Positions 19,227-61,600 of a stretch of 64,000 nt of DNA are shown in pieces. Position 1 is the first letter of the stretch, and each line of letters opens with the position of its first letter. The stretch is from Haliotis cracherodii (lineage: Eukaryota), in contig NW_027266308.1 in the NCBI RefSeq assembly GCF_022045235.1, positions 22,010,001-22,074,000 on the forward strand, given 5' to 3'. Position numbers and translations under genes: made by a program. A model generated the notes under the pieces. It was not told the DNA's origin. It made no database searches and saw nothing but the letters and a program-made list of their open reading frames with translations.

Positions 19227-19616
19227 TCACTCCAGAGGCAGAGGTTTAATCTTGTTTGATCTCCACCACCTATTCCGCCGCACAACCCTTTCTTGAGGCA
19301 GTGGTAAGGTATACAGAACCTCCTCCCCTCTTGTCAACCTCAGACGCCAGTCCAAGAAGTGTTCGTCCACAGAGTCCACCCACGTGGTGTCCAGACTGTT
19401 GGTGGACATCTGTTTGCTCCACTGTCTCCAGTCATGTCTGACCAACCAGAACTCCAGCAGATTGCCCTGCTTCTTGCACTGCTGGACACACGCTATGAGA
19501 TATGACCTTGCGGATGTCACCTTGCCCAGGAGGAGAGAGAAGTAAGCTCTGAGGTGATACGCACGAGGTTTCAAACCAGGGCTCTTCTTCAGTAGTTTCT
19601 TTAGGGAGTAGAATTC
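19227..19616 (-). CDS. ADCY10: ADCY10-like terminal exon w30 (…PRAYHLRAY…LPLE*)
   Basis: ctccag acceptor; PRxYHLxAY motif; TGA at 19229-19227. Confidence 0.88.
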   Translation of the reverse strand, partial: EFYSLKKLLKKSPGLKPRAYHLRAYFSLLLGKVTSARSYLIACVQQCKKQGNLLEFWLVRHDWRQWSKQMSTNSLDTTWVDSVDEHFLDWRLRLTRGEEVLYTLPLPQERVVRRNRWWRSNKIKPLPLE

Positions 19617-37600: not shown

Positions 37601-40600
37601 AGTCTTTTAAGGTTAATATGATGAACAGTCTTCAGTTTTTTCATGTCTATCAGCTTGAAAGGGAAAGGCAGTGTAAGGTGTGACTTTCTCTTTATATTAG
37701 TAAATGACAAAGACGCATTTTCATCAGATATATGGTTGTATAGGGGCAGCTCATGTAGGCATCCAGATTCTCCCTCATTGTAGACCGCCTCCGTGGTGTA
37801 GTGGATAGAATGTCTGCCCGGATAGCGTAAGGTCCGGGGTTTGATCTCCGGCCACGTCATACCAAAAGACGTAAAACTGTTAAAAGATGGCACTTGTTAT
37901 TACCCTTCCTGGCGTTCGGCAATAAGGGGCTAAAACAAGGACTGGTCGGCTCAGTGTCAGTATACTGTGTCTAAGTGACGTAGTCATGTCAAACTGCGGT
38001 ATGGTATCTCAGTGGACAAGCACTGTCGATCCCCGGGGCCGTCACAGTTAGCATTAAGGTGCTGAAACAAGGACTGGTCAACTTGAAGCTATTATACTGT
38101 GTCTGAGTGGGGTATTCATGTTAAACTCCACTTCACCTCCCCACCACCTTCTCCTTCATTATGATCCGTTGTTTGTCAGCATCATGCGTGTTTGGTTTCA
38201 CCAAAGATTCACTGCATCACGTCGGGCTTTCCTCCCACATGAAGCTGACACGCCGTCATACAACTTACAACAGTACAGAGTCGCGTGAGCCCAACACACA
38301 CACGCAGTCGTTGTGAAGACACTCACCATATGCGTGAGGAACTCAAAGACCTGCGTCCGAGCTGTTACAGATGCTTGGTTCATATGTGAGGGTGGTATGG
38401 GCTGCAAGAAAGGGATCAGGGTCAGATTAACAAGTCTGTTTGTTTGTTGTTTAACGCGCACTCAGCAATATTCCAGCTATATGCCGGCGGTCTGTAAATA
38501 ATCAAGACTGGAGCAGACAATTCAGTGATTGACATTATGAACATCGATCTAAACAATTGGAATGCGATGACATGCATCAACCAAGTCAGCGAGCCTTACC
38601 ACCCAGTCCCGCCTCCTACGACAAGCATGGGTTGCTGAAGACAATTCCAAACCGCATCTCCACAGGTCGAACAAGGCACCCCAAGCGCCCCTTCAGGGCA
38701 GTGTGACCGATATGCAATGTCTTAAATCATTTCCAAGCTCACCAAAGATCAAGTCAATAACGCTTACCATGAATACCAAATTACTTTCCTGATTGTGTTG
38801 ATATATCAATTAAGAAACATTTGCTTACACTGACAATAAAATACAACAAGGACAGGTCAGTGAGTAAGTAGCCGCTTTTAGTAATATTCCACCAATATCA
38901 CGCCGGGGTGGCACCAGAGATTGTACTCATAATGGGAATCGAACAACAGTGACAAGGCGGGGTGATCGTGATGACGCTGAGGAGTGAACGACACCACCAT
39001 ACCTTTGTGGACAGTAGGTCGACAACTGCTGCAATGTGCTGGTCCATGCCACACAACCTCATGGTTTCCAATACAGCAGGCTCCTTCTCCACCTCCTGCG
39101 AGTAGCCGCAACTCGACAGCAACATCCGGAGAAGATGTCTGGCCAGAAAGTACGCCGTGTTGACATTCAGGAGGTTCAGGCTGCAGCTGATCACTCTGTG
39201 GTGGAAATAAGCTGTATTGGTGTATGGCAAACAAAGAAATCCCATATCAATACACGAAGATGGAGGCACTCACTCACTCACTCACTCACGTACGTACGCA
39301 CGTACGCACGCACGCACGCATGTATGTAAGGTTCTCTTGTGACATCAGGACATGACATTGACATACTTCAGGTTCTCCTGGGCAGCTATATAACACAGAG
39401 CATCCAGCAGTCTAGTCTTGCCCATTCCAGCGGACCCCACGAATACAAGATGGCGGTGTTTGCCGTTGTCCAGGAGGTTGTGGATTTCACCTAGGAACAT
39501 GTTCTTCTCCTCGTTCCGTCCTGCAGTGGAAGAACTTAAAAAAATACACCACGGTTTTCGCTAGTTTGATTTGTCGGAACACCAGTTGGACACCAATGAG
39601 AAGTACAAGAGGATGCACTGGTTTCTGTTTCTTAACACTAACAGTCAAAAGCTTTTCCTCATATATAGATTGGTAAATGGTGCTGATACGTGAATCTTAG
39701 GGGCCGACCATTTGATATTCTTGGCGTTTAGGTAGAGGGGCGGTTGCTCGAAACTTGACAAAATAATTATGTTTCAGGCTGTTGAAACCAGAAGAAATGG
39801 GCTGCCACAAAAACTTAATTGTTGCAAGATGTTTTACCTTTCAAAACATCAGGCCCCTAGTTATAAATAAAAAGATACCTGGATTTGAAGCTGAGGGAAA
39901 TATCTAATCTCCATACAAAATCCTAGCATCCGACCATCCCATCACACACCCTCCATCCTGAATATCAAGGTCGGTCCCTTACATTAAAACGAGTATTACA
40001 GCATATTTAATATCTCTCACCTAACAAGGGGTACTCGAAGTACGGAAGGCTGTTCTCAATTCCTGAGCTGTCTTTGTTTACATCGGGGAGGCTGAATTCA
40101 CGGATGAGTCCTATATTCTGGAGACCTTTCATTCGTTTGGTAACCAAGACAACGAAGTTTTCGGGTGGCAGACGACACGACTGGAAAGTATCGTCATCAC
40201 ACGTGACCTTGTTAGGGTATTGCATCATCAGCCTGGCCGCCATATTGACTTTCCGTCCTATCACTGTACAGACAAAGCGAGAAGACAATGAGTTGTTATC
40301 ACCCAACTGATAAGTTGTATCCACACATGTACCTATTCAACCCAACCTTGAAGTTGTGTCTAAATGTATTTACCTATTCATGTTATCAACCCTGCCTAGA
40401 AGTTGTCTCTAAAGATGTACCTATTCATGTTATCAACACTGTCTAGAAGTTGGTCCCTAAATGTATTTACCAATTCATGTTATCAACCCAACCTAGAAGT
40501 CGTCTCTACACATGTACCTATTCATGTTATCAACACTGCCTAGAAGTTGTCACTAAATGTATTTACCTATTCATGTTATCAACCCTGCTTAGAGGTTGTC

Positions 40601-43600
40601 CCTACAGATGTACCTATTCGTGTTATCAACCCAACCTAGAGGTTGTCTCTAAATGTATTTACCTATTCGTGTTATCAACCCTGCCTAGAGGTTGTCTCTA
40701 CAGATTTACCTATTCACGTTATCAACCCAACCTTGAAGTTGTCTCTAAATGTATTTACCTATTCATGTTATCAACCCTACCTAGAGGTTGTCTCTAAAGA
40801 TGTACCTATTCATGTTATCAACCCTGCCGAGTTGTCTCTAAATATATTTACCTATTCATGTTATCAACCCTGCCTAGAGGTTGTCTCTAAAGATGTACCT
40901 TTTCGTTTTATCAACCCAACCTTGAAGTTGTCTCTAAATGTATTTACCTATTCATGTTATCAACCCTGCCTTGAAGTTGTCCCTAAATGTATTTACCTAT
41001 TCATGTTATCATCCCAACCTAGAATGTGTCTCTACAGATGTTCATATTCATGTTATCAACCCTGCCTAGAAGTTGTCTCTAAATGTATTTACCAATTCAT
41101 GTTATCAACCCAACCTAGAAGTTGTCTCTAATTGTATTTACCTATTCATGTTATCAACCCAGCCTTGAAGTTGTCCCTAAATGTATTTACCTATTCATGT
41201 TATCATCCCAACCTAGAATGTGTCTCTACAGATGTTCATATTCATGTTATCAACCCAACCTTGAAGTTGTCTCTAAATGTATTTACCAATTCATGTTATC
41301 AACCCAACCTAGAAGTTGTCTCTAATTGTATTTACCTATTCATGTTATCAACCCTGCCTTGAAGTTGTCCCTAAATGTATTTACCTATTCATGTTATCAT
41401 CCCAACCTAGAATGTGTCTCTACAGATGTTCATATTCATGTTATCAACCCTGCCTAGAAGTTGTCTCTAAATGTATTTACCTATTCATGTTATCATCCCA
41501 ACCTAGAATGTGTCTCTACAGATGTTCATATTCATGTTATCAACCCTGCCTAGAAGTTGTCTCTAAATGTATTTACCAATTCATGTTATCAACCCAACCT
41601 AGAAGTTGTCTCTAATTGTATTTACCTATTCATGTTATCAACCCTGCCTTGAAGTTGTCCCTAAATGTATTTACCTATTCATGTTATCATCCCAACCTAG
41701 AATGTGTCTCTACAGATGTTCATATTCATGTTATCAACCCAACTTTGAAGTTGTCTCTAAATGTATTTACCAATTCATGTTATCAACCCAACCTAGAAGT
41801 TGTCTCTAATTGTATTTACCTATTCATGTTATCAACCCTGCCTTGAAGTTGTCCCTAAATGTATTTACCTATTCATGTTATCATCCCAACCTAGAATGTG
41901 TCTCTACAGATGTTCATATTCATGTTATCAACCCTGCCTAGAAGTTGTCTCTAAATGTATTTACCTATTCATGTTATCAACCCAACCTAGAAGTTATCTC
42001 TAATTGTATTTACCTATTCATGTTATCAACCCTGCCTTGAAGTTGTCCCTAAATGTATTTACCTATTCATGTTATCAACCCAACCTAGAAGTTATCTCTA
42101 ATTGTATTTACCTATTCATGTTATCAACCCTGCCTTGAAGTTGTCCCTAAATGTATTTACCTATTCATGTTATCATCCCAACCTAGAATGTGTCTCTACA
42201 GATGTTCATATTCATGTTATCAACCCTGCCTAGAAGTTGTCTCTAAATGTATTTACCAATTCATGTTATCAACCCAACCTAGAAGTTGTCTCTAATTGTA
42301 TTTACCTATTCATGTTATCAACCCTGCCTAGAAGTTATCTCTAGAGATGTGCCTATTCGTCTTATCCAATATGCCTAGAAGTTGTCTCTAAAGATGTACC
42401 TATCCATGTCATGCCTTGAAACTACTATATTACCCCGTTGGCAGTTAACAATTACAAACAAAGATATATGGTTTACATATTCGCTTTGGTCTTTACTGAC
42501 CACAAAACTAGTCTGACTAATCACGTTGAAAGAGATGCCACAGTTCCGGATTCCGGCGACAACACCGGTTGTGATATGTCAGTGTGACACGGTTATACAC
42601 TGAGCAGGACTAACAACTACATGACACTAATTTCCCTTACACCAGTGTCCAGTTACACTTGAAAGGCGGACGTAATATTAATACAAAATCTTCCTCCAAC
42701 ATTTAACGGAATGCATAGAAACATTTTATCTCACGTGAATGATGACACAAGCCGACTTGATACACATGTTCAGTGAACGCTCGATAATCCAGACCCTGTT
42801 ACTCGGGAAAAGCCATCTTCCGTGTGGTTACTGTTGGGACGGACCTTATCATGTTGAAATCATTAGTTAATCCGGACGATTTTACTAGAAACGATTTGGT
42901 CCGGATCAATAAGGTTTCATTGTATGGGGAGACATACAATTAACGCCACTCCATGTTTACTCTCATATATCCTGAAACACTGACACATGATATTGATCTC
43001 ATTGGTAAAATTAAACAAAATTTGAAATAGGACGGTATTATTCTAGATGGGCGTGAGTACAAGTGCACATCAGATGATACACAGATGCAGATAAAACAAT
43101 TGAAAGGGGACTTAGAAACTATTGTCATGGACCATGTTATTAGATAAAAACAGGATACGATTTTTAAAAATGGCTATTTCATGGAAACAGGTAGTCAGCT
43201 GTGCTTAACTTTTTTCTATGGTTATATAAGACCTGTTTGACAAGTGTTTCTGCATGCGTGCAATACATACTACACATATATGAAGAAAGATGCTGTTTTA
43301 AATGTGAAGACTGTATTGAACATGTTTTACCTTTATGACCAATATATAACGACTAGAGGGCAACCCTTCCTACTTCCTGTAGCTTTACTCTTCCCTACTT
43401 TAACGCTATTCTAATTTAACGTATATTAGCAAACCCAGATCTTGTCGATTGTGTTGCCAAAACCTGCTATGGAATTTTAATTAATCATTAACCTCCGACA
43501 GATGTTATATATGGATAATGTATGTGCACGTTTATGTATATAAATACATTAGAGTATTTATGTTAGATATACTGTGCATGAGCAGCAATTTTAGTCTCCT

Positions 43601-46600
43601 TATAAAATGACATTTTATGTACATTTACCAACTTTGTTGTATTCTCTCTCATAGATCTCGGACCGCCTTCTTGGTCTGCGGCATGGTATCTTACTTACTT
43701 AAATTGGGAATTTAACGTGCGCTTTCCGACATTTCGCGCACGGGCCCGCCAGGCCATTTAGTGTTTGGTTGAAAAGGGTATGTCTGGAAAGGTGAGGCAA
43801 CCTAGGTGTTTTTTTTAGGGTTGCTTACTTAATTTGGGGAACAAATTTGGAATTTTGAAATATGCCATGCAAAAGGTGGAGGGGTGAGGACTAAAATGGA
43901 GTTTGTGTGTTTTTATAGGTTTAAAATTGTAGGGTTTAATGGCAGCTTGTTTGTTGTACTTTTTATAATTGCAGCCAAGTAGGCCTGGATTTGGAGTGTT
44001 GTTCTGTGTAGCTGGTAATGTCTGCAATATAGTATTATGTGTTCAGGCGTTTCTTTTAAGTTGCAGTGGGGGCATTTACCGGTTTGGTGTTTTTTAATTT
44101 GGTGTGGGTGGGAGTTTAACTTAGTGTGGCCTCTTTGTAGTTTAGTTATTAATCTGTCAATGTTTTTGGTTTTATGATGGATTTTTGTTTTTGGAGTGGC
44201 ATTTGTAGCAGGTGTTTTAGTTTGCAATCAGATTTCTGATAGTTATTTTGCCTCTTTTTGGAAGATTTTCTCCTTTGTGATATGTTAAATTCGGTTGTTT
44301 TTTATATATTGGTAGGTTGATTCATGGTATCTCACCGAGCTAGCACTACATATCGGCATCAGTCCGGACTGGTACAAACAGCCACACACACGTGCATGCA
44401 CGTCGCTATATAAGTGCAATAATCTTGGACGCGACGTTAAACCCAATTTCACCTCACCTCATAAATCTGTGCGATTGGTCGTAGATGTTGTTGTCATGCA
44501 TGTATATAATCTCGCTTTTTACCGACAGACAGACGGGACATGAAAAACCCGTCTGTCTGTCTGTCTGTCTGTCTGTATAAATATGGCACAATATATGTGT
44601 TTGTTTGGGCGGTGGTGGAGGGGGGGGGGGGACTTACCGGAGTATTCATGGCGTCGTGCATGGCCGATCACGCCGCAGAAAGTCGTCCCCGTTGTTACCC
44701 CAATTGACACTCTTCTGAAAGAGACAAAAGAACGCCGCCCTTTACAAGGTGTCACGCGGTCAAATTAACACAAAACCACAGCTTTATTGTCTTCAGCTAT
44801 GTTTATTTAACGGTAAAATATTGACAGTGTGTTGTAAAAACATCGCAGTTTTGAGAGACTGGGAACGTAGTATCGTTTAAATGTAAAATTAAACTGACTA
44901 TTTCTTCGTTTCCTTGTCGAATGTACATGCCAATTAGACATAGGTTGTAAGCACATCAATCCATATGTAACCTACAGCCGTTTGATTTAATGTTTGGACA
45001 AAACGTACTAAAGTTCGTTATGGATAAGAAAGTAGTGACAATTTATGCATATCAACTTGCTGTAAAGCCGACGTTTCGGTATAGATCCTTGACAACGGTA
45101 TAAGGATCTATACCGAAACGCCGCCTTTACAGTAAATAAAGAAGTTGTTATCCATAAATTGTCTCTTCTGAGTCATCCGTCAACTTCTAAGTAATGCCTA
45201 TCAAACAATTCGTGTTGGATACGTAGGAAATAATTCAACACATACTTGTATATCAAAACATGTGGTCACGTTATGTGTATAACATTATTTAACATACGAC
45301 ATAAATAAACCTCAGCGTTATCAAGTCCCGTGACCAATGTACTTATATAATTATCCTTCTATGTATGGTCAGGGCCGGTGACACGGTGATCGAGTTAGCA
45401 TGGAGACCCCCTGACACGAAGTGTGAGGCTCTGTTTGAGTGGATGTTGCTATTTTGTTTAATTACACAATTCAAGAACGAAGCACAAATTGTGCTGTTTT
45501 AAAGGAGGGTTTATTTTATGATTTGGTAATTCGTGTTCAGTCGTGTAATTTTGTGTAAAATACACTACCAGATAGAGTCGTAATACTTTACTTTTAGTAT
45601 TCCAATCAGCGTGACCCGGACGATGTGTATGCATAATACAGATGTGTGTGGATATGGGGTGGGGGCGGAGTTCTAGCCTGCACCCGCACCCCAACCACCT
45701 CTGGTCCCGTGCATGTGAACCTCAATTTAACTCCGTTATCGATTACTGAGAACGCATTAAAAATACCGCGTTAAAAAATACGCCGAGAGGGCAATATTTA
45801 GTCAAAATTAAGACAGCATTCGGTTGAGACACTCGCTCAGCTGAGCTACTTGTCATGCAAATAGTTTTTTATTCATTTTTAGTTAAGGTTAATGGTGACC
45901 TGTTCTATCTCGCAACCTTACTGGTTTTTTTCACTTAATTCTTTGGTGAAAAGACACACTTTTCATACTAACATATCCCGTCAATTAATGCAGAATTGTA
46001 ATTAAAGCAAGTTATTCATAGTATACACACTATACAAATAAGGACATTTTATTGCGTTGCTGTTGTAGGGAAGTATTGGGTTATCAGTAAGGTCATTTTT
46101 CTAAACCTGTGTTTACACACGTGTCACCACCGGCAATTGTTGGTGTTGTACAAACTCACAAAGGGCAGTTCGACCAATCTAAGATGTCTTTCATAAACGT
46201 CCATTCAGAGGAGCTTATAGTCCGCCTCAAAGCGGTCACACGGTATATAGTTGGGCGCACATACCCCTTCTTTACTTAACTAAGGATCGATAAAGTCACC
46301 ACAGCACGATGAAGTCGTGACGGGAGATCTTAGTTTGACACGCTACCCAGAACCCAGCGGTGCCCTGTGTTGTTTGTGATTAGTCCAAGCTATGCCGCTG
46401 ATTAGTGTCAGGTTTTAATACACGCTAAACCGGTAATGGTTTAATCTTGTGTAATTCTAGAACATCTGGGAAGAAGGGATTTATCGCGACCCACTGACCC
46501 GCTGGCAACGAGTTGAGACAGGAGGCATGGCTATGCAGAAGAGTGCAGTAACGGGGCCATCTTGACAAAGGACACTTAAATATATACCTGACGGATATGT

Positions 46601-49600
46601 TGCGCTCCAGTGATTTTTAGAAGGACGTGCATGGTTGGATTACATGTTCCTGTTTTGAGCTTTCAGTGGGAAGGCTCAGTGTTGTTTTTCTCTGCTGGGA
46701 AGTTGTTGTGCCTAGCGACCACTGCTCCTGTGCAAGTCCAGGTTTCATTATGAGTAGTATTGATAACCGCGCCACAGGTGAAGCGAGTCCGATAGATGAC
46801 GACGAGTGGTTCAGGACTCCGCCCACCTCGCGCTACCAGTCGTCTGCTAGCCTCGCCAGCAGCGCGAAGAGTGTGTACCTGTCCGCTTTGGATCTGTTAG
46901 ACGGGGCAAGCGAGATGGATATACCAGAAGACGACGACGTTGAGAGGGGAGGGCCGTCCCAGAACGGGGAGGCGGGTAAGACTGAGATTTACTACTCCCC
47001 CCTGGGAGGAAGCGACGAAGATGAGAGACACGACGCGAATGACGATCCGTACCACGTGTCTGAAACAGCCCCCCTCACGAAAGCCGAGGTCGTAGAGGAC
47101 GCCGTAGGAAAAGTTGCCGCCCCCGAGGTTGGTAGTAATGAGGGTGTATGTGATTGTTGTTGTCTCATGTGCAATCTTCACCATAGAGCAAAACAGGTGA
47201 TCGATTCAAAGTGGACGTATCTTATTTGTGCACTGAAGTGCAGTGACCTGAATTGTCCCAACTATGACAAGCTCGGTCAGGATGAACTGTTTTCCTGGTT
47301 GGAAAACCACAAAGAGGGGGACAACAACATAGAATTCGTGCAGAGGTGTTATCGGAGGGACAAGCCTTGGTGTAATACTATTCAAAAGGAGCAGAGTCAG
47401 CTATTTTTCTTCTTCTTTCTGTTAGTGAGAGACATTTACAAACTGTCGGCCTGCGATAACGGACAGAACATCAAACATGAAACCTACCCGCACCACGACT
47501 CCTTCTTGAAGTGGATGCAAGAACTGGAACACGTCCTTGAAATCCTCCTCCAAGCTTCATTCACTCATGTAGATTCATCAGATTCCGATTTGGAAAAAGT
47601 AGAACGACCGTACAGCGTGCTTCTGGCGATCAAAGAGACGCATAAAAAGAAGGACTACATCGGTATCTCCTTCGAGGACAGTGGTCTGGACCCAGCGGTG
47701 GATGAAATCAAAATTCTTCAAAGAAAGTTAGCCGGAACGCCGACAACTCTGCAGAAGGTGTTTGCCACGGGAGCCATCATTATGTTTTTGGCCGACATTG
47801 GCACCGATGTCTTCCAAGTGGTGACGTTTTACAAAGAAGGTATATCGATGTGGCCACTAATGCTGTTCTTTGTCATCGCCCCATCTCTTCTGAGCAGCGT
47901 GTTGTGTTTTTTCCAGATTTGTAAAGAGAAGACGACTACAAAAAAGGACAAGAATCTTAGAAGACTGGGAATGGTCCTGGTATCGCTACAACTGGGGCAG
48001 GTCTGGAGGAACATCTGTGAGATCTGTGACCGCTACCCCATCGTGGACAGTTACATCGTCCTCAGTCTCCTCATCATCAAGATGATAGAGGGTCTTCTCG
48101 AAGGAGGACCACAGTCCTTGATACAGACGTACGTCCTCCTAGACCATCCCGTGGAAACGTTAACGTTTACAAATATCCTAAAAATTTTGTCTCCATTTCT
48201 GTCCTCCATTAGCATGGCAGCTGCTTTAACAGATCTTGATCTGGGTAGAGCAGGATACTGCATGCCAACGAAAGCTAGAATTCTATCAGTGTTGTGCCGC
48301 TTGGGTGAAGTGTGGGGGCGATTTTTAGCCTATGCCGTGTGTTTCTCGGCTTTCGGGTATTATGGATTTATATTGTTTGGTGTCCAGTGTCTTTTTCTTA
48401 CCATCCCAACCTACATAGCATTGAGGAGAGACCATACTGAGAACAGCAGCCAGCAGGTGAACTGTGTGTACCTTCGTTGCAGGTACGGCGGATTTTACCA
48501 GGAGAAACCCACCAAGTTGTTCACTGCCAAGCTGCCCCGTCTCATAGTGTGGCTGTGTATAACCATGGTGTATTCATTCGTACCAATCCAAAGGTTCGAA
48601 CTGGACATGGAATTCAATCTGACCCAATCGAGCCGTCCGCCGTTCTGGAAGTGTAGCAGATTATACGGTCTATACAATGTCATTTATGCCCTGCACATGC
48701 TTGTGAACATTATTGCGTTTACCCTGTGGGTTACTATTGGCGGGGGACCATCTCAGCAACTGTTTATTCCAATCTGTGTCATGTTCATACTGGGAACCGT
48801 TGTCTCGACAGCCTTTAGGATGCAATCCTGGATGGGGAGAACCTACAAGATTGCGCTCAGACCAGGATTTGGGCCTCCTGTGTGAAAGTACGGGCTCTCA
48901 ATCGTACGTCAGCCTTCGTTACGAAAATGTATGGACCCGTGAATATCCAGGTCTTCACCAACCAATGCTTGCCGTAAGTGGCGACTAACGGAATCGGGTG
49001 GTCAGGGTTGCTGACTTGCTGGTTGATGCATGTCATCGATCCCACTTGCGCAGATTGATGATCATGATGTCAGGCACTGCAATGTATGCCCCAGACTCGA
49101 TTAATTTACAGCGTCAAAACAAAGTCAACAAACAAGAACAAGTATGATTTAACTCCTTATAATCCGAAGATCGGCATAGCAACTGTCGGGAACACGGCTG
49201 GCCAGACGGTGCACCTGAAATGGGCTCCACACGTGGGGAATCGAACCCTTGGCTCGATAGGTAACCTAAGTTATATTACCAATATACGGAAGTATGAAGT
49301 ATGTTAGTAAATGATGGACGCATGGATACCCTGTAATGTGAATACGTGTTTGACCTCTCTAGTATTACTCAATGCTGTGATAAAATAGTAAATCGAGTAT
49401 ATTATAGGGAACACTTGCATTGGTTGGCACTGACATGTACAGTGCCTGAACCAGTCGTGTAGATCACGGAATAGACGCATTGTAGTTTTAAACTGGTGAC
49501 GAATGTGTCAAACTATTAGGTTACACATAAAATGTCTTTCGTATTTACAAGCCGTATTCTTTCATCGTACGAAATGTATCTTATGTACTGGAGATACAAG

Positions 49601-52600
49601 ACCGACACGGACAGAAGTTTACCTGCAGATTTATATCTATGATAAATATATAGAAAATCCAAGAATATAATTATTTTCATCTAAACAATATAAGTATTGA
49701 ATATCATCAACTTCTCAACCTCAAAAATGAGGTATTTGTGACCACTGAATAAGTTCCGCGAATGAAAGAGAAAACAGCTGTTCACAGTCGATCAACCAAT
49801 ATCACGTGTGCATGTTAAGGGCCAGGTATTCCACGTGATTAGCCCTAACCGGGAGCATGGCACATATATTGTTGTTGAGAAACTATATCACGTCACACCG
49901 GAGCTTTACAGGTCGATTCTATGTTTTAATCAATGAAATCGATCGTTTTGTTAGCGCTTTTCATCTGTAACTCAACACAGGAAGTGTTTTGTTCACCCGA
50001 CATGAATAAAGATTGTGAAAGAATGTCATTGTTTTGTATGTTTCGATCAGTTATAATTTTAAGCATGTCCTGGTGGTGTGAAAACTATGATTAAATCGAT
50101 TTTCCGTCCTGCTGACTCCGCTGAAATGAACCAGCCTACTCGATACGAGGTAAATGGGCAATTCATTAGATAATGGTTTGAGAAATGATTATTACAAAAC
50201 GAATTATCGGAATTCCAAGGCAACCACAGTGCAGTGGGTCCCAAACAAGGTTTTGATTCACTTGATCAGATTACATTTATGAATTGCCATGGTAACCTTT
50301 ATATAAGTTTATACCGGTTTCAGATAACCTTCTTAGGTCGTTACGAAACTTTAACAACCACCATGGTAATATGATGAGAAGTAAGTTGTCTGAAGGCCGC
50401 GTTGATCATTATTGAACAGTATTTCAGGCCTGTCAGCTTCGCGTGGGAGGAAAGCCTGGAGTGAGTGTCTCTGACCTCGACCACCGCCACACCCAGCATG
50501 AGTGTGGTACTAACAACCCAAGAATCTCAACATTCAAACCATCTTCCTAAGCAAAGGAATGAACTGACTTTATACGTCCAGTTTCCACCCTTGCCTAACT
50601 AACTGACTTGAATTATGGAGTTAAATTTTGGCTAGATAGCATTTGTACCGCCACCTCGGCGTCAACATATTTTCCAAATTTTTTCATGTTTCATCAAGGT
50701 GTTCTCGTGATTTGATGCAGTTCGCGAATTAAGACACGTTTTATTACAATATGGATCTTGATCATCAATCTGACCGTTTGACTGGGCGCCGCCATTTTGA
50801 TTGAAGCAAATGCAAGTGATATGAGAGGTGGAATCTGATTGGTCAATGGGAGGGGCATAGAAGGGACATAAATCGTAAATAGCCACTGGTGGCATAATGA
50901 TCGAGCCCAGATTTTCCAGCCTAGTTCGACAAGAATGGAAACTGGAATTTTACAGTCAGTTAACTCCCATTCCTCGAGAAGACGCATTCCTACGTGTCCG
51001 TTATCGCGGCGCCATAGACCTCTGGACCACTCAGTCGCCCGTCATCAGAGAAAGTTGGATGGGGATAATGAAGAGAGGGGGGACTTGGTTCTGAGGGAAG
51101 GATCTGATGATCAGGCTCGGTGACCTGGTTGATTGCCTGTCATCGCACCAGGACTTCACCTATTGTGTGATGCACCGTATCCGGATTAGTGTGTACAAAA
51201 TCAAACATTGCTGTCGACTTACTGTATCCCTGGTAGCTTGTCAATGACCGTCTTCATCTTGACGGAGTTCTCGAGCGCATGCGCACAGTCCCGCTCGTGT
51301 TTAAAGCCAGGTAGACCAAATATCACCAGAAATGTACATCCCTGGAAACAGATGCCCATGCTGTAAAGGTGTACCTGGTTCTATTTCAATGCACCATTCA
51401 TGTTGATCTAAGTCGCGTTTGGGTATCCTAGTGGTTAAAGCGTTCGCTCGTCACGCCGAAGGCCCGGGTTCGATTCTCCACATGGGTATAAAATGTGAAG
51501 CCCATTGCTGGTGTTCACCGCCGTGATATTGCTGGAATATTGCTAAAAGGGGGCGTAAAACCATACTCACTCACTCATGTTGATCTACACTTCGAATTAG
51601 CTTTGCCTCGCTACACATGTCGTTTTCCCATAAGTATGGACATCGATATGTTTTCTTCTACCCTATTAAGCATCACTTGTAAGTTAATGTTATCTGGGGT
51701 GTATCTATCTTGTCATAAAAAAAAGGTACAGCTTTGATTGTCCGTGTTCTCAGATCTGTCAATTTCAACAGTCAGTTTCAAAATGAAACATCTGAAACTA
51801 AATATAAATATATATATCGTCACGGTATGTTTCTACGAACGTCATAACAGGTCATTTATAATACTGCTGCCGTCTACAGAGGGGGAATTCCAGTGTAACA
51901 CATTTAGGTCAAGAGCCTTTTTTATCGGTCGATAGACCCCTTTAAACGAACAAGAGTCAGTTTATAAGTCAGTTGATTGATTGATTGTAGAGGTAAATGC
52001 CAGTGACTGATCATTGTTAAACTTCCTTTTTATCAATATTACAATGGGACGCTAAACATTGGCCCTACACATTGTGCCTGTACACTCACTTATAATGTTA
52101 CAACCCGGAACTGTAGGTGGTAGATTGTGTCTCCCATCCCTATCCCTAAGGGCATGTTTGTGACCTGATTCAGATTCCCACCTTATCAAACAGGAAGATC
52201 TTGTTAAGGGAGCCATGGACGACTTTGATGTGACTGAAGACGACGTCGAAGATCTTCTGGAGTTGTTCCGTGCTGTTGACGTTGTCATCCAGTACCAGGT
52301 TCATGAAGACGATGGACACCTGCCTCATCTCAGACAGGAACTCCAGTGGCTGGTTGTCATCGATCTGCGGGGGATCACAATGAGTGAGTGAGTGAGTTGG
52401 GTTTAACGCCGCTTTTAACAGTATTCCAGTTATATCACGGCATGTCAGCTTAATGTGGGAGGAAAGCCCGAAGTGATGCAGGTCTCAGACGTTTACCGCT
52501 TCGGTGAAACCCACGAGCACGGGTATGGTGCTGACAAAGGGGGATCACAGAGTTTCAAGACAGTGATGAGTATGCATTGAGATTATTACACATGTGAATG

Positions 52601-55600
52601 TGTCGTTCTGCCTGTACGACACAGGATGAATTCTGACATAAGTGCCGTACATTTAGCAAGGTACAAATGCAATACCTTATTCACTATCCACACTTCATTA
52701 GTAGTCTCATATATTGAGCGAACATCATGTCACTAGTGATGTCACATTTTAGTTTGACATCACATATTAGCGTGGATGACATCACTGGGAGGTGACTGCA
52801 TGTGGGGTGAGTGGTCAGGCTCGGTGATGTGAATGAATGGGTACCCCTTTGGTCATAATATCAATCACAGGTTTGTCTGATCCAGGTTCGATTTTTTTCA
52901 GGCTAGCGTGATATAACAAGAATATTGCCTTAAACAGAAAATAAAAACAAACAATCTCAAGGAGCAACAATAACCGTGGCCTACCTTCTTCAGGACGGGA
53001 GAGAGCACGTACAGCCGCAACGTCTCCTCCAACCGCATCGCCTTCACCGTCTGCACGACGTTACGTACTGCAACGTCACAATATAAGACCGCTATAAACT
53101 TTCTATCTGTGGCAAATGCATTGTTTAAAATCCATCATAAAACGAGTTTTGAAAATAATTTCTCAATCAGTGTCATGAAAGTTAAGAATATATATAATAT
53201 GTGTTTGATCAAAAAGAAATAACTGATTATTATTAACTGATTTGGTAGCCTTGTCATTTAATGATCCTCAATTAGCGGAGCAGAGTCACGTCATTGGGGC
53301 GTTCGAATCCCAGGTGTGCTCAGGTTCCCCAGCTCGTGATTTTCACCAACGTGGAAAACGACCAAGAGCCGCAGCATGATCACTTCGGTTTTTCCTCAGA
53401 TCATTAAGCATTTATTTTGAGAGCGGAAGTGCAGCGGTTCGGACACGTGGCCGCGTCATAGCAAAAGACGTTAAAATGTTGTTCTTGTTACTCTGCCAGG
53501 CGCTCGGCATTAAAGGGATAAAACAAGGACTTCAAGGCTTGTGTCTGAGTGTGGTGAAAACAAGGACTGCAAGGCTTGTGTCTGTGTGTGGTGAAAACAA
53601 GGACTACAAGGCATGTGTCTGAGTGGGGTGAAAACAAGGACTTCAAGGCTTGTGTCTGTGTGTGGTGAAAACAAGAACTGCAAGGCTTGTGTCTGTGTGT
53701 GGTGAAAACAAGGACTACAAGGCATGTGTCTGTGTGTGGTGAAAACAAGGACTACAAGGCTTGTGTCTGTGTGGGGTGAAAACAAGGACTTCAAGGCTTG
53801 TGTCTGTGTGTGGTGAAAACAAGGACTTCAAGGCTTGTGTCTGTGTGTGGTGAAAACAAGGACTGCAAGGCTTGTGCCTGAGTGGGGTGAAAACAAGGAC
53901 TACAAGGCATGTGTCTGAGTGGGGTGAAAACAAGGACTGCAAGGCTTGTGTCTGAGTGTGGTGAAAACAAGGACTACAAGGCTTGTGCCTGAGTGGGGTG
54001 AAAAACAGGACTTCAAGGCTTCTGTCTGTGTGTGGTGAAAACAAGGACTACAAGGCTTGTGTCTGTGTGTGGTGAAAACAAGGACTACAAGGCTTGTGTC
54101 TGTGTGTGGTGAAAACAAGGACTTCAAGGCTTGTGTCTGTGTGTGGTGAAAACAAGGACTGCAAGGCTTGTGTCTGTGTGTGGTGAAAACAAGGACTTCA
54201 AGGCTTGTGTCTGTGTGTGGTGAAAACAAGGACTGCAAGGCTTGTGCCTGAGTGGGGTAAAAACAAGGACTACAAGGCATGTGTCTCTGTGTGGTGAAAA
54301 CAAGGACTACAAGGCATGTGTCTGTGTGTGGTGAAAACAAGGACTACAAGGCTTGTGTCTGTGTGTGGTGAAAACAAGGACTTCAAGGCTTGTGTCTGTG
54401 TGTGGTGAAAACAAGGACTGCAAGGCTTGTGCCTGAGTGGGGTGAAAACAAGGACTACAAGGCATGTGTCTGAGTGGGGTGAAAACAAGGACTGCAAGGC
54501 TTGTGTCTGAGTGTGGTGAAAACAAGGACTACAAAGCTTGTGCCTGAGTGGGGTGAAAACAAGGACTTCAAGGTTTGTGTCTGTGTGTGGTGAAAACAAG
54601 GACTACAAGGCTTGTGTCTGAGTGGGGTGAAAACAAGGACTGCAAGGCTTGTGTCTGAGTATGGTGAAAACAAGGACTTCAAGGCTTGTGTCTGTGTGTG
54701 GTGAAAACAAGGACAACAAGGCTTGTGTCTGTGTGTGGTGAAAACAATGACTGCAAGGCTTGTGCCTGAGTGGGGTGAAAACAAGGACTACAAGGCTTGT
54801 GTCTGTGTGTGGTGAAAACAAGGACTGCAAGGCTTGTGCCTGAGTGGGGTAAAAACAAGGACTACAAGGCATGTGTCTGTGTGTGGTGAAAACAAGGACT
54901 ACAAGGCATGTGTCTGAGTGGGGTAAAAACAAGGACTGCAAGGCTTGTGTCTTAAAGGGGTGAAAACAAGGACTACAAGGCTTGTGCCTGAGTGGGGTGA
55001 AAACAAGGACTACAAGGCTTGTGTCTGAGTGGGGTGAAAACAATGACTACAAGGCTTGAGTCTGAGTGGGGTGAAAACAAGGACTACAAGGCATGTGTCT
55101 GAGTGGGGTGAAAACAAGGACTGCAAGGCTTGTGTCTGAGTGGGGTGAAAACAAGGACTGCAAGGCTTGTGCCTGAGTGGGGTGAAAACAAGGACTACAA
55201 GGCATGTGTCTGAGTGGGGTGAAAACAATGACTACAAGGCATGTGTCTGGGTGGGGTGAAAACAAGGACTACAAGGCTTGTGCCTGAGTGGGGTGAAAAC
55301 AAGGACTACAAGGCTTGTGTCTGAGTGGGGTGAAAACAAGGACTACAAGGCATGTGTCTGAGTGGGGTGAAAACAAGGACTGCAAGGCTTGTGTCTGAGT
55401 GGGGTGAAAACAAGGACTGCAAGGTTTGTGTCTGAGTGTGGTGAAAACAAGGACTGCAAGGTTTGTGCCTGAGTGGGGTGAAAACAAGGACTACAAGGCT
55501 TGTGTCTGAGTGGGGTTAAAACAAGGACTACAAGGCTTGTGTCTCATTGGGGTGAAAACAAGGACTGCAAGGCTTGTGTCTCATTGGGGTGAAAACAAGG

Positions 55601-58600
55601 ACTGCAAGGCATGTGTCTAAATGGGGTGAAAACAAGGACTACAAGGCGTGGTCTGAGTGGGGTGAAAACAAGGACTGCAAGGCTTGTGTCTGAGTGGGGT
55701 GAAAACAAGGACTACAAGGCTTGTGCCTGAGTGGGGTGAAAACAAGGACTACAAGGCTTGTGCCTGAGTGGGGTGAAAACAAGGACTACAAGGCTTGTGC
55801 CTGAGTGGGGTGAAAACAAGGACTACAAGGCTTGTGTCTGAGTGGGGTGAAAACAAGGACTGCAAGGCTTGTGTCTCATTGGGGTGAAAACAAGGACTAC
55901 AAGGCTTGTCTGAGTGGGGTGAAAACAAGGACTACAAGGTGTGGTCTGAGTGGGGTGAAAACAAGGACTGCAAGGCTTGTGTCTGAGTGGGGTGAAAACA
56001 AGGACTACAAGGCTTGTGTCTGAGTGGGGTGAAAACAAGGACTGCAAGGCTTGTGCCTGAGTGGGGTGAAAACAAGGATTACAAGGCATGTGTCTGAGTG
56101 GGGTGAAAACAATGACTGCAAGGCATGTGTCTGGGTGGGGTGAAAACAAGGACTACAAGGCTTGTGCCTGAGTGGGGTGAAAACAAGGACTACAAGGCAT
56201 GTGTCTGAGTGGGGTGAAAACAAGGACTACAAGGCTTGTGCCTGAGTGGGGTGAAAACAAGGACTACAAGGCATGTGTCTGAGTGGGGTGAAAACAAGGA
56301 CTGCAAGGCTTGTGTCTGAGTGGGGTGAAAACAAGGACTACAAGGCGTGGTCTGAGTGGGGTGAAAACAAGGACTGCAAGGCTTGTGTCTGAGTGGGGTG
56401 AAAACAAGGACTACAAGGCGTGGTCTGAGTGGGGTGAAAACAATGACTACAAGGCATGTGTCTGAGTGGGGTGAAAACAAGGACTACAAGGCTTGTGCCT
56501 GAGTGGGGTGAAAACAAGGACTACAAGGTTTGTGTCTGAGTGGGGTGAAAACAAGGACTACAAGGCGTGGTCTGAGTGGGGTGAAAACAAGGACTGCAAG
56601 GCTTGTGTCTGAGTGGGGTGAAAACAAGGACTACAAGGCGTGGTCTGAGTGGGGTGAAAACAAGGACTACAAGGCATGTGTCTGAGTTGGGTGAAAACAA
56701 GGACTACAAGGCTTGTGCCTGAGTGGGGTGAAAACAAGGACTACAAGGCTTGTGTCTGAGTGGGGTGAAAACAAGGACTACAAGGCATGTGTCTGAGTGG
56801 GGTGAAAACAAAGACTGCAAGGCTTGTGTCTGAGTGGGGTGAAAACAAGGACTGCAAGGTTTGTGTCTGAGTGTGGTGAAAACAAGGACTGCAAGGTTTG
56901 TGCCTGAGTGGGGTGAAAACAAGGACTACAAGGCTTGTGTCTGAGTGGGGTTAAAACAAGGACTACAAGGCTTGTGTCTCATTGGGGTGAAAACAAGGAC
57001 TGCAAGGCTTGTGTCTCATTGGGGTGAAAACAAGGACTGCAAGGCATGTGTCTAAATGGGGTGAAAACAAGGACTACAAGGCATGGTCTGAGTGGGGTGA
57101 AAACAAGGACTGCAAGGCTTGTGTCTGAGTGGGGTGAAAACAAGGACTACAAGGCTTGTGCCTGAGTGGGGTGAAAACAAGGACTACAAGGCTTGTGCCT
57201 GAGTGGGGTGAAAACAAGGACTACAAGGCTTGTGCCTGAGTGGGGTGAAAACAAGGACTACAAGGCTTGTGTCTGAGTGGGGTGAAAACAAGGACTGCAA
57301 GGCTTGTGTCTCATTGGGGTGAAAACAAGGACTACAAGGCTTGTCTGAGTGGGGTGAAAACAAGGACTACAAGGCGTGGTCTGAGTGGGGTGAAAACAAG
57401 GACTGCAAGGCTTGTGTCTGAGTGGGGTGAAAACAAGGACTACAAGGCGTGGTCTGAGTGGGGTGAAAACAAGGACTACAAGGCATGTGTCTGAGTGGGG
57501 TGAAAACAAGGACTACAAGGCTTGTGCCTGAGTGGGGTGAAAACAAGGACTACAAGGCTTGTGTCTGAGTGGGGTGAAAACAAGGACTACAAGGCATGTG
57601 TCTGAGTGGGGTGAAAACAAGGACTGCAAGGCTTGTGTCTGAGTGGGGTGAAAACAAGGACTACAAGGCTTGTGCCTGAGTGGGGTGAAAACAAGGACTG
57701 CAAGGCTTGTGTCTGAGTGGGGTGAAAACAAGGACTGCAAGGTTTGTGTCTGAGTGGGGTGAAAACAAGGACTGCAAGGTTTGTGCCTGAGTGGGGTGAA
57801 AACAAGGACTACAAGGCTTGTGTCTGAGTGGGGTGAAAACAAGGACTACAAGGCTTGTGTCTCATTGGGGTGAAAACAAGGACTGCAAGGCTTGTGTCTA
57901 AATGGGGTGAAAACAAGGACTACAAGGCTTGTGCCTGAGTGGGGTGAAAACAAGGACTACAAGGCTTGTGCCTAAGTGGGGTGAAAACAAGGACTGCAAG
58001 GCTTGTGTCTAAATGGGGTGAAAACAAGGACTACAAGGCTTGTGCCTGAGTGGGGTGAAAACAAGGACTACAAGGCTTGTGTCTGAGTGGGGTGAAAACA
58101 AGGACTACAAGGCTTGTGCCTGAGTGGGGTGAAAACAAGGACTGCAAGGCTTGTGCCTGAGTGGGGTGAAAACAAGGACTACAAGGCTTGTGCCTGAGTG
58201 GGGTGAAAACAAGGACTGCAAGGCATGTGTCTAAATGGGGTGAAAACAAGGACTACAAGGCTTGTGCCTGAGTGGGGTGAAAACAAGGACTACAAGGCTT
58301 GTGCCTGAGTGGGGTGAAAACAAGGACTACAAGGCTTGTGTCTGAGTGGGGTGAAAACAAGGACTGCAAGGCTTGTGTCTCATTGGGGTGAAAACAAGGA
58401 CTGCAAGGCATGTGTCTAAATGGAGTGAAAACAAGGACTACAAGGCTTGTGCCTGAGTGGGGTGAAAACAAGGACTACAAGGCTTGTGCCTGAGTGGGGT
58501 GAAAACAAGGACTACAAGGCATGTGTCTGAGTGGGGTGAAAACAAGGACTACAAGGCTTGTGCCTGAGTGGGGTGAAAACAAGGACTACAAGGTTTGTGT

Positions 58601-61600
58601 CTGAGTGGGGTGAAAACAAGGACTACAAGGCTTGAGTCTGAGTGGGGTGAAAACAAGGACTACAAGGCTTGTGCCTGAGTGGGGTGAAAACAAGGACTAC
58701 AAGGTTTGTGTCTGAGTGGGGTGAAAACAAGGACTACAAGGCTTGTGCCTGAGTGGGGCATACGTAGCCATGTTAAGGTAAGGAAAGGTATTTCAGTGGC
58801 CTAGCACTATAAAACCGGCATTAACCCGGACTAGTACAATCCACACACCCACGTGCATTGCATCAGGTGTACGTAAACACAATGAACAACCTCAAGGGTC
58901 CAGGGGGAGGGGGTGACACCGCCCCCACCCACCCACTACCCTCTTTTGAAAACCATATGTAGTATGTTGTAAACAGTAAAATTATCTGAGAGAGTATTTT
59001 CATATTTATGACTCCTCCTTTTTAAAATGACGGATCCGCCCTTGAATAAGACATTTTTTGAAGTTGGAAAATACGCACAACAATCATAGGACCATGGTAG
59101 CTTAAACACAGAGACCCATGGAATGATGAATGACGTACGTTTCAGCACCCCTGTCATCGTTTTGGAAGAGAAGCCGGTCTTCCTGGCTGACGCTTCCGCC
59201 ACGGTGTCCTCTAAATCCAGACTGTTGCGGGTCCCTACCAGGGGCCGGCCGGGGGGTGAGGACACATTGTCCTCGTGGACAGTGCTCGTGGCGAGGGACA
59301 TACGCCGCCCTTGGGACTGCATGAAATGTGGAGCACCATCCGTGAGGGAGAAACGACGCTCTGGGTGAAAATGAAGTGTTTTAATCAACAGGCCATATAT
59401 CCATGTTATATATAATATGTGGGAGGCATTGTTTTTAGACCGATATTTTTTTTTCAGTCGAGGATTTAAACCAAACACGTTTTTATTCCAGAAAGTCTAG
59501 TTACTCCCGCCCCTCACATCAATGCAACGGTATTACGATAAAAATGACACCACTGAAACAACACTGTGAAAACTGTGTGATTTAAACCAAACACGTTTTT
59601 TTACTCCAGAAAGTCCAGCTACTCCGGCCCCTCACATCAATGCAACGGTATTACGATAAAAGTGCCACCACTGCAACAACACTGTGAAAACAGTGACTCC
59701 ATTGTCACAATACTGCGACAGCAGTGCCAACATCGCTGCAGTAATATAACAGTGCCACCTTTGCAGCATTATTGTGGCAGTAGTGCAATTCATGTAGCTA
59801 CACTCGTATGATAACGTACATTCTATGTACAGCTAGATGTGTAGATGACCAGTCTTGTCTTCATTTCGTTTCATCTGTCGATACGACCTATTGATACTTG
59901 TATACTACCTTGTCGTCGATACATTGCCATCAGGACAGGTTTACTTGCAATGCATCGATAGTTCTGTTGACCGTTACATCCCAAATGCTTACTGTGCCAA
60001 ATGTATATCAGCATAAATGATACCCGTGAAGATGCGGGTTTGAATAGGTCTTCAGCAACCTTGACTTATCATTAGGGACTATGTTTTTCGTAAGATGCGA
60101 CTAACGGGATCGCGTGGTCCGGTTCGCTGACTTGGTTGATGCATGTCATCGTATCCAAATTGCGTAGATTGATGCTCATGACATCTATCATTGGAATGCC
60201 TGCTCCAAACTCGATTATTACAGGCAGCCGTCACATAGCTGGAATATTGCTGAGTGAGGCGTTGAACAACCAGAAAAACAAAAACGTATGATGTAACACC
60301 ATAGCTACTGATGGTGATAACTGAGGCCCTGTTCAGTACATAATACCTCGGTGTTTCACAACTTCAGAGCTTGACGTCCGAGCAACCACTGGTTCAGGTT
60401 TCATTTCCAATACCTGGAACAAAGAACGATGTTCAACCCTTCAGCTGACACAGCTCCGTTAATCCCACAGTACTCAAAGCCAGTCATGTAAATATATAAT
60501 TATAAATATAATCAACTGATTGAATTTTCTTATAATCAGTTTTGTCTACTTTCTTTTCTCAACAAAAGTATACCATAACATGTATTACCTACAATCACAG
60601 TAAAACCGAGAAGATATATTTGCAGGCAATACGTCAAAAAAAAAATTCCGTTAAAATCCACTAGTGTGGGGCAAAGATGGCCAAGTCGTCTAAATTGCGT
60701 CCCTTGGGCACCCCAGAAACCTATGATTTTGCGTTCGAATCCCGGTTCGCTCCGATTATGTTTCTAGGTTTGTCAGTACCGTGCTCATGGGTTTCACCAA
60801 AGTGGTAAACGTCAGAAACCTGCATCACTTCGGACTTTCCTCCCACATGAAGCTGTACGGTGTGAGTGAGTGAATTGGGTTTAACGCCGCTTCAAACAGT
60901 ATTCCAGTAAGATGTTTTAAAGCGGCGTTAACACCAATTCACTCATTCACCCATTTAAGTCCCAACTTGACACCTAGCGACGAAGAACGTACCCTGATGT
61001 GTGCACCATCTTCCATGACCTCGTACTCATACCGGCCGCAGTTGCAGAGCTCCCAGGCGCTAGGGGACATGACGACATAGCCCGACTTACAGAAGCTCTC
61101 CGCCTTGTTGACGTCTGACACAACCTGCCCCAGCTCCACGTAATGGCGGAACTCGTCGTTGCCAAGGAAGGTCATGGTCATATCTCCAGCGGCAATACCT
61201 AGTTTGGTCGCGAAGTTTAATATTCATAAATCTCAAGGTTACTTTAACGTTTGGTAATTCGAGGTAAAATAATTACTCATAAGTGTAAAGACACGTGCAT
61301 GGTAAAATATGACTACATCAACTTAAAAGATTATGTATACCCAAATCAAACATTCTTCTATGAGCGTGTGTGACCAATAACTAATGGAGAGAGTCCAATA
61401 CCTGGGATGTAAATGTTATCTTGTTACGGAACAAACAACACGCCAGATGTAAGGGCTTCAGGTGAATGTGGCCGGTACCATCTCTCCTGTAACAGTGCTC
61501 ATAACAAAGTTCTCATTAAATCCAGTTAAAACTATTTTTGTTTCTTTAACGCAGCACATTCCATTCTGGGTTTTTGTATGGAGAAAAGATATTTTTTCAG

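Follow-up and report, generated by a model that had tools for sequence, protein, structure and literature searches.

A conserved single-exon XK-family gene nested antisense in an intron of the soluble adenylyl cyclase gene of Haliotis cracherodii

We analyzed a window of 64,000 nucleotides from the abalone Haliotis cracherodii (NCBI RefSeq assembly GCF_022045235.1, contig NW_027266308.1, positions 22,010,001 to 22,074,000); all positions below are counted from its first nucleotide. The window holds an open reading frame (ORF) for a divergent XK-family membrane protein, nested within a soluble adenylyl cyclase (sAC) gene on the opposite strand. The reading that we prefer, at a probability of roughly 60%, is that of a conserved single-exon XK gene whose product is likely a scramblase, with control probably exerted through phosphorylation in the N-terminal arm and not through a caspase-cut tail, and whose position within sAC is probably incidental. 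What is new here is that the C-terminal plug of the XKR8/9 type is replaced by an N-terminal arm of 330 residues. Where literature is cited, the statements refer to the portions of those papers that were available.

Identification of the nested gene and its host

The stop-free frame on the plus strand (46621-48885) comprises 754 codons, and its first ATG, at 46750, yields a protein of 711 residues. The Pfam model XK-related (PF09815) matched residues 339-689 with 77.5 bits (E 1.2e-21) against a gathering cut-off of 24.8 bits, covering model positions 3-327 of 337; no other family matched. The gene has no intron: the frame is open throughout, and contigs over the locus show no splice. Thus, an intact single-exon ORF between sAC exons w9 and w10 and its membership in the XK family, both proposed in an initial annotation made from the sequence alone, are upheld by its position, the Pfam profile, and the predicted fold.

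Matches to human ADCY10 identify the host as the ADCY10/sAC gene, encoding the bicarbonate-sensing soluble adenylyl cyclase, with an intron that interrupts its second catalytic domain (C2). Exons w8, w9, and w10 are consecutive C2 exons, in frame and colinear with the human protein (Table 1), which bears out the antisense nesting that had been claimed for this region. The reading frame continues from 51341-51223 into 44714-44638 across intron 44715-51222, a joint placed by the GT-AG borders and the frame. When the small exon at 60413-60347 is counted, the exons flanking the intron are the ninth and tenth sAC exons of the window, in agreement with their earlier numbering; exon w11 is single-copy in a genome search. 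The whole transcript unit of the nested gene (46290-50021) is contained in this one intron.

Table 1. Features of the nested gene and of the surrounding part of its host
Feature	Position	Strand	Basis
sAC exon w10, matching human ADCY10 382-405 (E 3.2e-5)	44638..44714	-	Protein match
sAC host intron in the C2 catalytic domain, 6,508 nt, phase 2, with GT-AG borders	44715..51222	-	AG/GT borders and frame
TATATA, candidate TATA box (weak)	46244..46249	+	About 45 nt upstream of where the main contigs reach furthest 5'
Putative transcript unit without splicing, about 3.7 kb including both UTRs	46290..50021	+ (assigned from ORF and AATAAA)	Contig pieces
XK-family ORF, single exon, 711 aa	46750..48885	+	Pfam, fold match, orthologue
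Ser/Thr block, residues 17-50, with phospho-FFAT-like cores at residues 20-26 and 42-48, the first overlapping a TPPxS Fbw7/GSK3 degron consensus	46798..46899	+	Identity to P0002, matrix scores
Predicted helical cytosolic domain, residues ~136-330	47155..47739	+	Identity to P0002 at 42 of 195 positions; no Pfam, Atlas, or clear fold match
XK transmembrane domain with D349, D353, W368, K444, E447, E451, Q455, and R524	47764..48816	+	Pfam, predicted model, residue mapping
AATAAA polyadenylation signal	50005..50010	+	3' contig ends at 49971, 50010, and 50021
sAC exon w9, matching human ADCY10 341-367 and following (E 0.05)	51223..51341	-	Protein match
sAC exon w8, matching human ADCY10 278-340 (E 2.7e-7)	52182..52364	-	Protein match

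Transcription of the nested gene

Contigs were mapped from four of the 22 runs listed (X1, X3, X10, and X13, representing four organism codes); all four, which a tool guessed to be RNA, have contigs along the transcript unit with no splice, although contigs carry no readable strand. At their longest, single contigs extend over 46290-48952 (X3), 46304-48903 (X13), and 46483-48946 (X10), whereas X1 is present in six pieces that end at 49708. The protein of a congener (P0001) is encoded on a contig of 3,750 nt. Contig cover was found in each run, and its assignment to the plus strand follows from the ORF and the AATAAA. This signal, already singled out in the initial annotation, is the only AATAAA between the ORF stop and the end of the intron (one ATTAAA lies at 50090), and contig cover terminates around or just beyond it.

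The nested gene would use its own promoter near 46250. In X10, low-depth contigs at 45962-46425 lie upstream of the main unit. They are compatible with a purely transcriptional link, in which the nested promoter would hinder sAC elongation, or would fire backwards and give a short sAC transcript that starts from w10 and lacks the catalytic core. A precedent is the nested gene ceh-10, through which a short form of the host gene polq-1 is induced (PMC12274878, in part). However, among the 15 joints listed (372 more lie outside the list), neither a start on the minus strand nor a splice into w10 was found, and the contigs are strandless; we consider such a link quite unlikely. Depth in the bin with sAC exon w10 was 3.23, 0, 0.48, and 0 in X1, X3, X10, and X13, versus ~7-42 over the XK ORF, but gaps in contigs are no proof of absence, and we draw nothing from these depths.

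Conservation and origin

An orthologue (P0002/P0010) is 39% identical to the ORF protein over its full length and ~50% identical in the transmembrane domain. The orthologous genes appear to be single-exon as well, judging from proteins that run complete from start to stop within ENA contigs of 36.8 and 699 kb. Because this orthologue is full-length at such a distance, we regard the gene as old and conserved under selection. Between P0001 and the ORF protein, the transmembrane region differs at 4 of 381 positions and the N-terminal part at 16 of 330 (P 0.005). For X3, the listed differences in codons 1-156 (163 further rows lie outside the list) comprise eight synonymous and seven nonsynonymous ones (pN/pS ~0.24). 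This ratio, together with the orthologue, supports purifying selection, in line with the selection that had been proposed for the ORF. Word-indexed searches returned P0001 only and missed P0002, so they provide no measure of absence from other molluscs. Two metagenome scans gave no relative, with none among 169 pattern matches and 10 of 10 loci alike in little but the motif (best E 0.005 within this set of ten).

The initial annotation had also suggested that the gene is a retroposed copy of an XKR paralogue. Three of the six XK loci in the genome, namely the ORF and two other XK genes, have an unbroken XK domain. Best matches to four of the five paralogues reach 17-25% identity, and the fifth gave no significant match. 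In a quick tree built with 27 of 133 other XK proteins, in which long branches meet, the ORF clade groups with no paralogue and has a very long stem, at 4.6 changes per column; no parent lineage is seen there. An intron-bearing parent, sought by identity and in the tree among the five genome paralogues, was not found. Neither a poly(A) remnant nor a target-site duplication stood out above chance (the longest shared word was 10 nt, as is typical of shuffles); in a gene of this age, erosion of such traces is to be expected. Since no parent was found and half of the XK loci have unbroken XK domains, retroposition is unproven. The gene probably entered the long intron in the distant past, with an RNA and a DNA route no longer distinguishable.

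Fold and lipid path of the XK domain

The ORF protein is predicted to have the XK membrane fold. In an AF2 model of residues 130-711, pLDDT is mostly 83-94 across the transmembrane helices, and the model matches XKR4 (Z 28.4, rmsd 3.3, 299 residues aligned), XKR8 (Z 25.7), and XKR9 (Z 22.8), with the next match at Z 11.2; Foldseek concurs. Scrambling by XKR8 requires D26, D30, K134, E137, E141, and R183 (PMC8500837, in part). Five of these six residues are in register in the ORF protein (D349, D353, K444, E447, and E451), and the W45 gate corresponds to W368; the R183 position is L498, with R500 two residues further, and the K134 position is Q in P0002. The predicted lipid path would be lined by the five residues in register, with W368 as the gate. 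On these residues, the protein is likely a phospholipid scramblase.

Its function may nevertheless have drifted, given the length of the stem that leads to the clade in the quick tree. Of the XKR8 salt-bridge residues, R98 and R214 are kept (R420 and R524), whereas D129 and D295 are replaced by S439 and V652, and their equivalents are absent in both orthologues; in XKR8, D129A and D295K are set apart from the mutants with normal expression and localization (PMC8500837, in part). A Cys/aromatic insert at residues ~560-640, of which 43 of 80 positions are identical to P0002, is not found in other XKRs. The lost D129, D295, and R183 equivalents, the long branch, and the conserved insert would all suit a protein that does not scramble and uses the fold as a membrane adaptor or as a carrier of another substrate, and for XKR7, no PS scrambling is reported to have been detected (PMC10938166, in part). 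On the other hand, the acidic path and the Trp gate are retained in both orthologues while being mostly lost in two other single-exon paralogues, and we find a non-scrambling role doubtful.

We looked in the ORF protein for the caspase-site tail and plug helix of the XKR4/8/9 subgroup, and both are absent: only ~10-20 residues extend beyond the last predicted helix. The DxxD pattern is confined to residues 48, 95, and 275, and none of the three is conserved in P0002; the first of them (DLLD|G) was rejected as a caspase site on this ground. For the VPS13A-binding beta-hairpin of XK (XKR1), no strands are called in the model, where the loops have low pLDDT.

The N-terminal arm

The 330-residue arm is predicted to be disordered and has no transmembrane segment (maximum KD 1.3). 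Its predicted helical domain had no Pfam or Atlas match, and fold comparison returned only generic helical-hairpin matches with Z < 10. The best-conserved block of the arm is the Ser/Thr block at residues 17-50, where 17 of 34 residues are identical to P0002, compared with 12-22% in neighboring segments. This block would mediate the probable kinase control of the protein, and two more specific readings of it can be weighed.

One, which would add to the preferred reading instead of replacing it, is self-tethering: phosphorylated FFAT-like motifs would bind VAP and place the XK protein at ER contacts without the FFAT of VPS13A, the partner with which human XK acts at ER-plasma membrane contacts (bioRxiv 10.64898/2026.01.07.698282, in part). 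On the phospho-FFAT matrix (cut-off: below 3), the two motifs score 3.0 and 3.5 in the ORF protein and 3.0 and 2.5 in P0002, and these top-scoring windows align in the conserved block. A motif pair this good arose in 17 of 3000 shuffles of residues 1-130 of the ORF protein and in 6 of 3000 for P0002, and of the 133 other XK-family proteins retrieved, just 4 have a window of 3 or better at any position. The arm that carries the motifs is, as noted, predicted to be disordered and free of transmembrane segments. MSP exons, which we take to be VAP-like and MOSPD-like, are present in the genome, where the VAP MSP domain is divided over several exons. However, the scores of the ORF protein lie at or above the cut-off, while 2,079 of 20,373 human proteins score < 3; one motif on its own reached 3 or better in 295 of 3000 shuffles; and the two-motif thresholds were chosen after the data were seen. 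The scorer is, moreover, uncalibrated on the STARD3 example, and the Table EV4 sheets differ in one sub-score conversion (PMC7705450, in part). A tether of this kind is possible but unlikely.

The other reading is a GSK3-primed Fbw7 phosphodegron that would keep the scramblase low, so that turnover, not cleavage, is in control. TPPTS at residues 23-27, identical in P0002, fits the Fbw7 (Cdc4) consensus S/TPPxS/T/E/D (PMC5069553, in part). Both proteins retain the serines at +4, +8, +11, and +14, and among the 133 other XK proteins TPPx[SDE] is present in just 2. The Fbw7 substrates known so far are mostly nuclear or cytosolic, and a degron leaves the second core (residues 42-48) unexplained; we hold it to be improbable.

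A bolder combination, which we think very unlikely, is a lineage-specific XK scramblase in which a tandem phospho-FFAT ER tether replaces the caspase plug, so that the protein builds the contact and scrambles there; it may be kept in sAC across gastropods through shared regulation in bicarbonate-sensing cells.

Relationship between the nested gene and sAC

One link, following the initial annotation, would be that sAC and the nested gene are co-expressed (for example, in sperm) and that bicarbonate, cAMP, and PKA would activate scrambling. It could draw on the physical nesting in C2, on the relatively common co-expression of opposite-nested pairs in Caenorhabditis elegans (PMC12274878, in part), and on XKR8, which can be activated by phosphorylation and whose loss can make male mice infertile (PMC10938166, in part). 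However, a PKA site of the form [RK][RK]x[ST] was found in none of the ORF protein, P0001, and P0002 (a weak argument, because 45% of shuffles also have none), fly nested pairs tend toward divergent expression (PMC5174743, in part), and in the literature we found nothing linking the XK and sAC gene families, on an XK gene nested in sAC, or on this gene. We regard this link as highly unlikely.

Instead, the position of the XK gene within sAC is probably incidental, because nothing found ties XK function to the cyclase and because of base rates, which come from flies, not molluscs: in flies, nearly 10% of all genes are nested; among the nested genes 71% are on the opposite strand, and 37% of the opposite-strand inner genes are intronless, so that an arrangement of this kind is common (PMC5174743, in part). 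The nesting is ordinary unless proven deeply conserved. Of wider interest is how XK scramblases are switched on outside apoptosis, for which a natural variant with the lipid path retained but with a phosphorylation-rich N-terminal arm in place of the plug gives a direct test. If true, an FFAT within the protein would couple scrambling to ER contacts in a new way. The orthologous proteins are nameless in the collection searched, so the gene may escape annotation.

Comparison with known systems

The ORF protein shares the XK fold with human XKR8 and XKR4 and rat XKR9 (PDB 7DCE, 8XEJ, 9BOJ, and 7P16; PMC8500837 and PMC10938166, in part) at 14-19% identity in structural alignments. It keeps equivalents of XKR8 D26, D30, K134, E137, E141, W45, Q145, and R214 and has lost those of D129, D295, and R183. 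Unlike XKR8 and XKR9, it has no caspase-cut C-terminal plug and possesses the long N-terminal arm and the conserved insert. Human XK (XKR1), a scramblase, likewise has no C-terminal caspase site, and a contact-site role like that of human XK is possible for the ORF protein; however, the beta-hairpin of XK is not evident in our model, and in the human system the FFAT is on VPS13A, whereas here it is the XK protein that bears the FFAT-like motifs (bioRxiv 10.64898/2026.01.07.698282, in part). An XK protein with its own FFAT was not found in the literature searched. As in the phospho-FFAT proteins STARD3 and Kv2.1, the motifs have an aromatic residue at position 2, S/T at position 4, and an acidic or S/T flank, in a cytosolic arm of a membrane protein predicted to be disordered, but in comparison with those proteins they are borderline and only candidates (PMC7705450, in part). 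With respect to its arrangement, the locus resembles animal opposite-strand nested genes, including ceh-10/polq-1, in its intronless antisense inner gene, long intron, and many-exon host (PMC5174743 and PMC12274878, in part). However, inner genes in flies are typically young, fast-evolving duplicates (PMC5174743, in part), whereas the inner gene of the abalone is old and has no recognizable parent.

An XK-family gene nested in a soluble adenylyl cyclase gene

The initial annotation proposed an intact single-exon XK-family gene lying antisense in the C2 region of a soluble adenylyl cyclase (sAC) gene, and this description holds. The window contains a stop-free plus-strand frame at 46621-48885 (754 codons), from which the ATG at 46750 yields a 711-aa protein; the XK-related family is its sole Pfam match, scoring 77.5 bits over residues 339-689 (cut-off 24.8). 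The minus strand carries a set of exons with AG/GT borders that translate as sAC; the reading frame continues from exon 51341-51223 into exon 44714-44638 over a phase-2 intron of 6,508 nt (44715-51222), exactly the interval first proposed. Three successive sAC exons match human ADCY10 residues 278-340, 341-367 (weakly, E 0.05) and 382-405; thus, this intron falls within catalytic domain C2.

Selection on the ORF, also proposed initially, is clear from sequence comparison. The full-length orthologues P0002 and P0010 share 39% identity with the nested XK, rising to about 50% with an orthologue in the membrane domain. Between the nested XK and the congener protein P0001, 4 of the 381 TM-region residues differ, against 16 of the 330 that form the N-terminal arm, and the differences listed for sequencing run X3 over codons 1-156 (8 synonymous, 7 non-synonymous) give a pN/pS of about 0.24. 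Nested within sAC lies a genuine gene of the XK family, one that is old and under selection.

Features of the window and XK loci elsewhere in the source genome (G000; C4 and C34 are its contigs)
Feature	Position	Strand	Remarks
sAC small exon	60413-60347	-	67 nt; closes apparent frame break upstream
sAC exon between C1 and C2	59139-59360	-	222 nt; Ser/Thr/Arg-rich linker with RRxS and RKT-type sites
Likely final sAC exon	19227-19640	-	
Long minisatellites in sAC introns	53520-58758, 40337-42409, 28545-30161		37-bp x 142, 49-bp x 43 and 21-bp units
Broken frames in later sAC intron	33602-34473	+	presumably zinc-binding and endonuclease end of a non-LTR retroelement, by resemblance
Convergent neighbour exons	1195-2660	+	neighbour resembles a polypeptide GalNAc-transferase
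Single-exon XK-domain gene	G000:C34:14806747-14809704	+	986 codons; long C-terminal tail
Single-exon XK-domain gene	G000:C34:14830425-14832866	-	814 codons; long C-terminal tail
Three-exon XK tandem pair	G000:C34:24419851-24424800 and 24436592-24439811		
XK fragment copies (L045-L047)	G000:C4:22757-22849, 60371-60463, 88653-88745		match window 48151-48243

Plus-strand ORFs of 582 and 455 codons were rejected as false products of the 21-bp array.

Transcript evidence

Part of the stretch is contained in 22 runs, none of them recorded as RNA; contigs were aligned from four of them, belonging to four organism codes, whose RNA status is a guess. All four have contigs on the nested ORF, and in three of them it is spanned by single contigs 2.5-2.7 kb long. 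The unit begins near 46290-46304 in two runs, and in three it ends at 49971-50021, around the AATAAA at 50005 that had been put forward as a candidate signal. A contig break near 48950-49020 falls on a repeat, and no splice joint within the unit is among those listed for these contigs. P0001 (97% identical) sits on a 3,750-nt contig, near the unit length of 3.7 kb. Because the contigs carry no strand, we infer plus-strand transcription.

At 46669-46671 the window has an in-frame GTG where P0001 and runs X3 and X13 have ATG, which would extend the N-terminus by about 28 residues. The 5' leader holds six short upstream ATGs as well as a single uORF of 40 codons in another frame.

Origin and paralogues

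A family search (13 matches among 13 scored candidates) gave at least six XK loci in the genome, three spliced and three with an unbroken XK domain, the nested XK included. For the suggested retroposed XKR paralogue no parent can be named: identity to four paralogues is 17-25%, and the fifth gives no significant match. In a quick tree (35 rows), a long stem carries the nested XK together with P0001 and P0002 and no other sequence, and neither a poly(A) remnant nor a target-site duplication was found above chance at the locus. Given what is generally known about nested genes, retroposition is plausible.

The single-exon genes on C34 converge and are separated by about 21 kb. At the D26/D30 positions (XKR8 numbering) they have E/N or T/gap, and at E141 S or Q; they may be non-scrambling, because most XKR8 path residues are lost. 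The three-exon pair groups together (SH-aLRT 99), also with a Batillaria protein. Near the start of C4, a larger repeat is present in three copies that are 98-99.8% identical across 3 kb, next to a 182-codon frame on the minus strand; each copy contains a 93-bp stretch of nested XK coding sequence at 89-90% identity, apparently a captured fragment of the gene.

Relationship to sAC

A module in which sAC-derived cAMP acts on the nested putative scramblase is very improbable. In C. elegans, co-expression of nested pairs is reported to be relatively common, and a short host transcript can be driven by the nested gene (PMC12274878). According to a survey of flies, nearly 10% of genes are nested, 71% of these antisense, with an intronless inner gene in 37% of antisense pairs, and expression of nested pairs tends to diverge (PMC5174743); by analogy, this base rate would argue for caution. 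The literature sampled holds nothing relevant on genes nested in sAC, on a tie between XKR and ADCY10 or on XK scramblases of molluscs, and two metagenome scans found no relative. The protein lacks a PKA site ([RK][RK]x[ST]), as do 45% of shuffles. A PKA target here, if any, is the cyclase itself, in its 222-nt linker exon.

Predicted fold and regulation

An AF2 model of residues 130-711 (74 aligned sequences, mean pLDDT 71.6) resembles XKR4 (Z 28.4, rmsd 3.3, 299 aligned), XKR8 (Z 25.7) and XKR9 (Z 22.8), the following row reaching only 11.2; these structures also top the Foldseek ranks. There is a conserved insert near residues 560-640. About the first 135 residues of the arm are predicted to be disordered; the helical domain that follows matches neither a family nor an Atlas entry, and no fold clearly.

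Within the arm, identity to P0002 is 50% over residues 17-50, against 12-22% in adjoining segments. Scored with a published phospho-FFAT matrix (PMC7705450, Table EV4), the two best windows reach 3.0 and 3.5 in the nested XK and 3.0 and 2.5 in P0002, at aligned positions inside this block. Two motifs this good occurred in 17 of 3000 and 6 of 3000 shuffles, at thresholds chosen post hoc; one motif at 3 or better occurs in about 1 in 10 shuffles, and among 133 other XK proteins, 4 attain a score of 3. As about 1 in 10 human proteins score below 3, the phospho-FFAT reading is no more than a lead. The first core also fits the Fbw7 degron consensus (PMC5069553), with a conserved serine run behind it. 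Under either reading, the block would suggest regulation by a kinase; PKA is not indicated. Such a predicted block on a plug-less putative scramblase is a more interesting lead than the cAMP connection.

Most likely (roughly 60%), the nested XK is a scramblase regulated via its N-terminal arm, its position in sAC being incidental. Scrambling by XKR8 is reported to require D26, D30, K134, E137, E141 and R183, with W45 as the gate (PMC8500837). Profile mapping places D349, D353, K444, E447, E451 and W368 at the corresponding positions, with L498 at R183 (R500 is close by). Against a scramblase role, an orthologue has Q at K134, and in place of D129 and D295, partners in two stabilising salt bridges of XKR8, the nested XK has S439 and V652. 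Finally, XKR4, XKR8 and XKR9 carry a C-terminal plug that caspases are described as removing (PMC10938166), whereas the nested XK has no plug and instead a 330-residue N-terminal arm.
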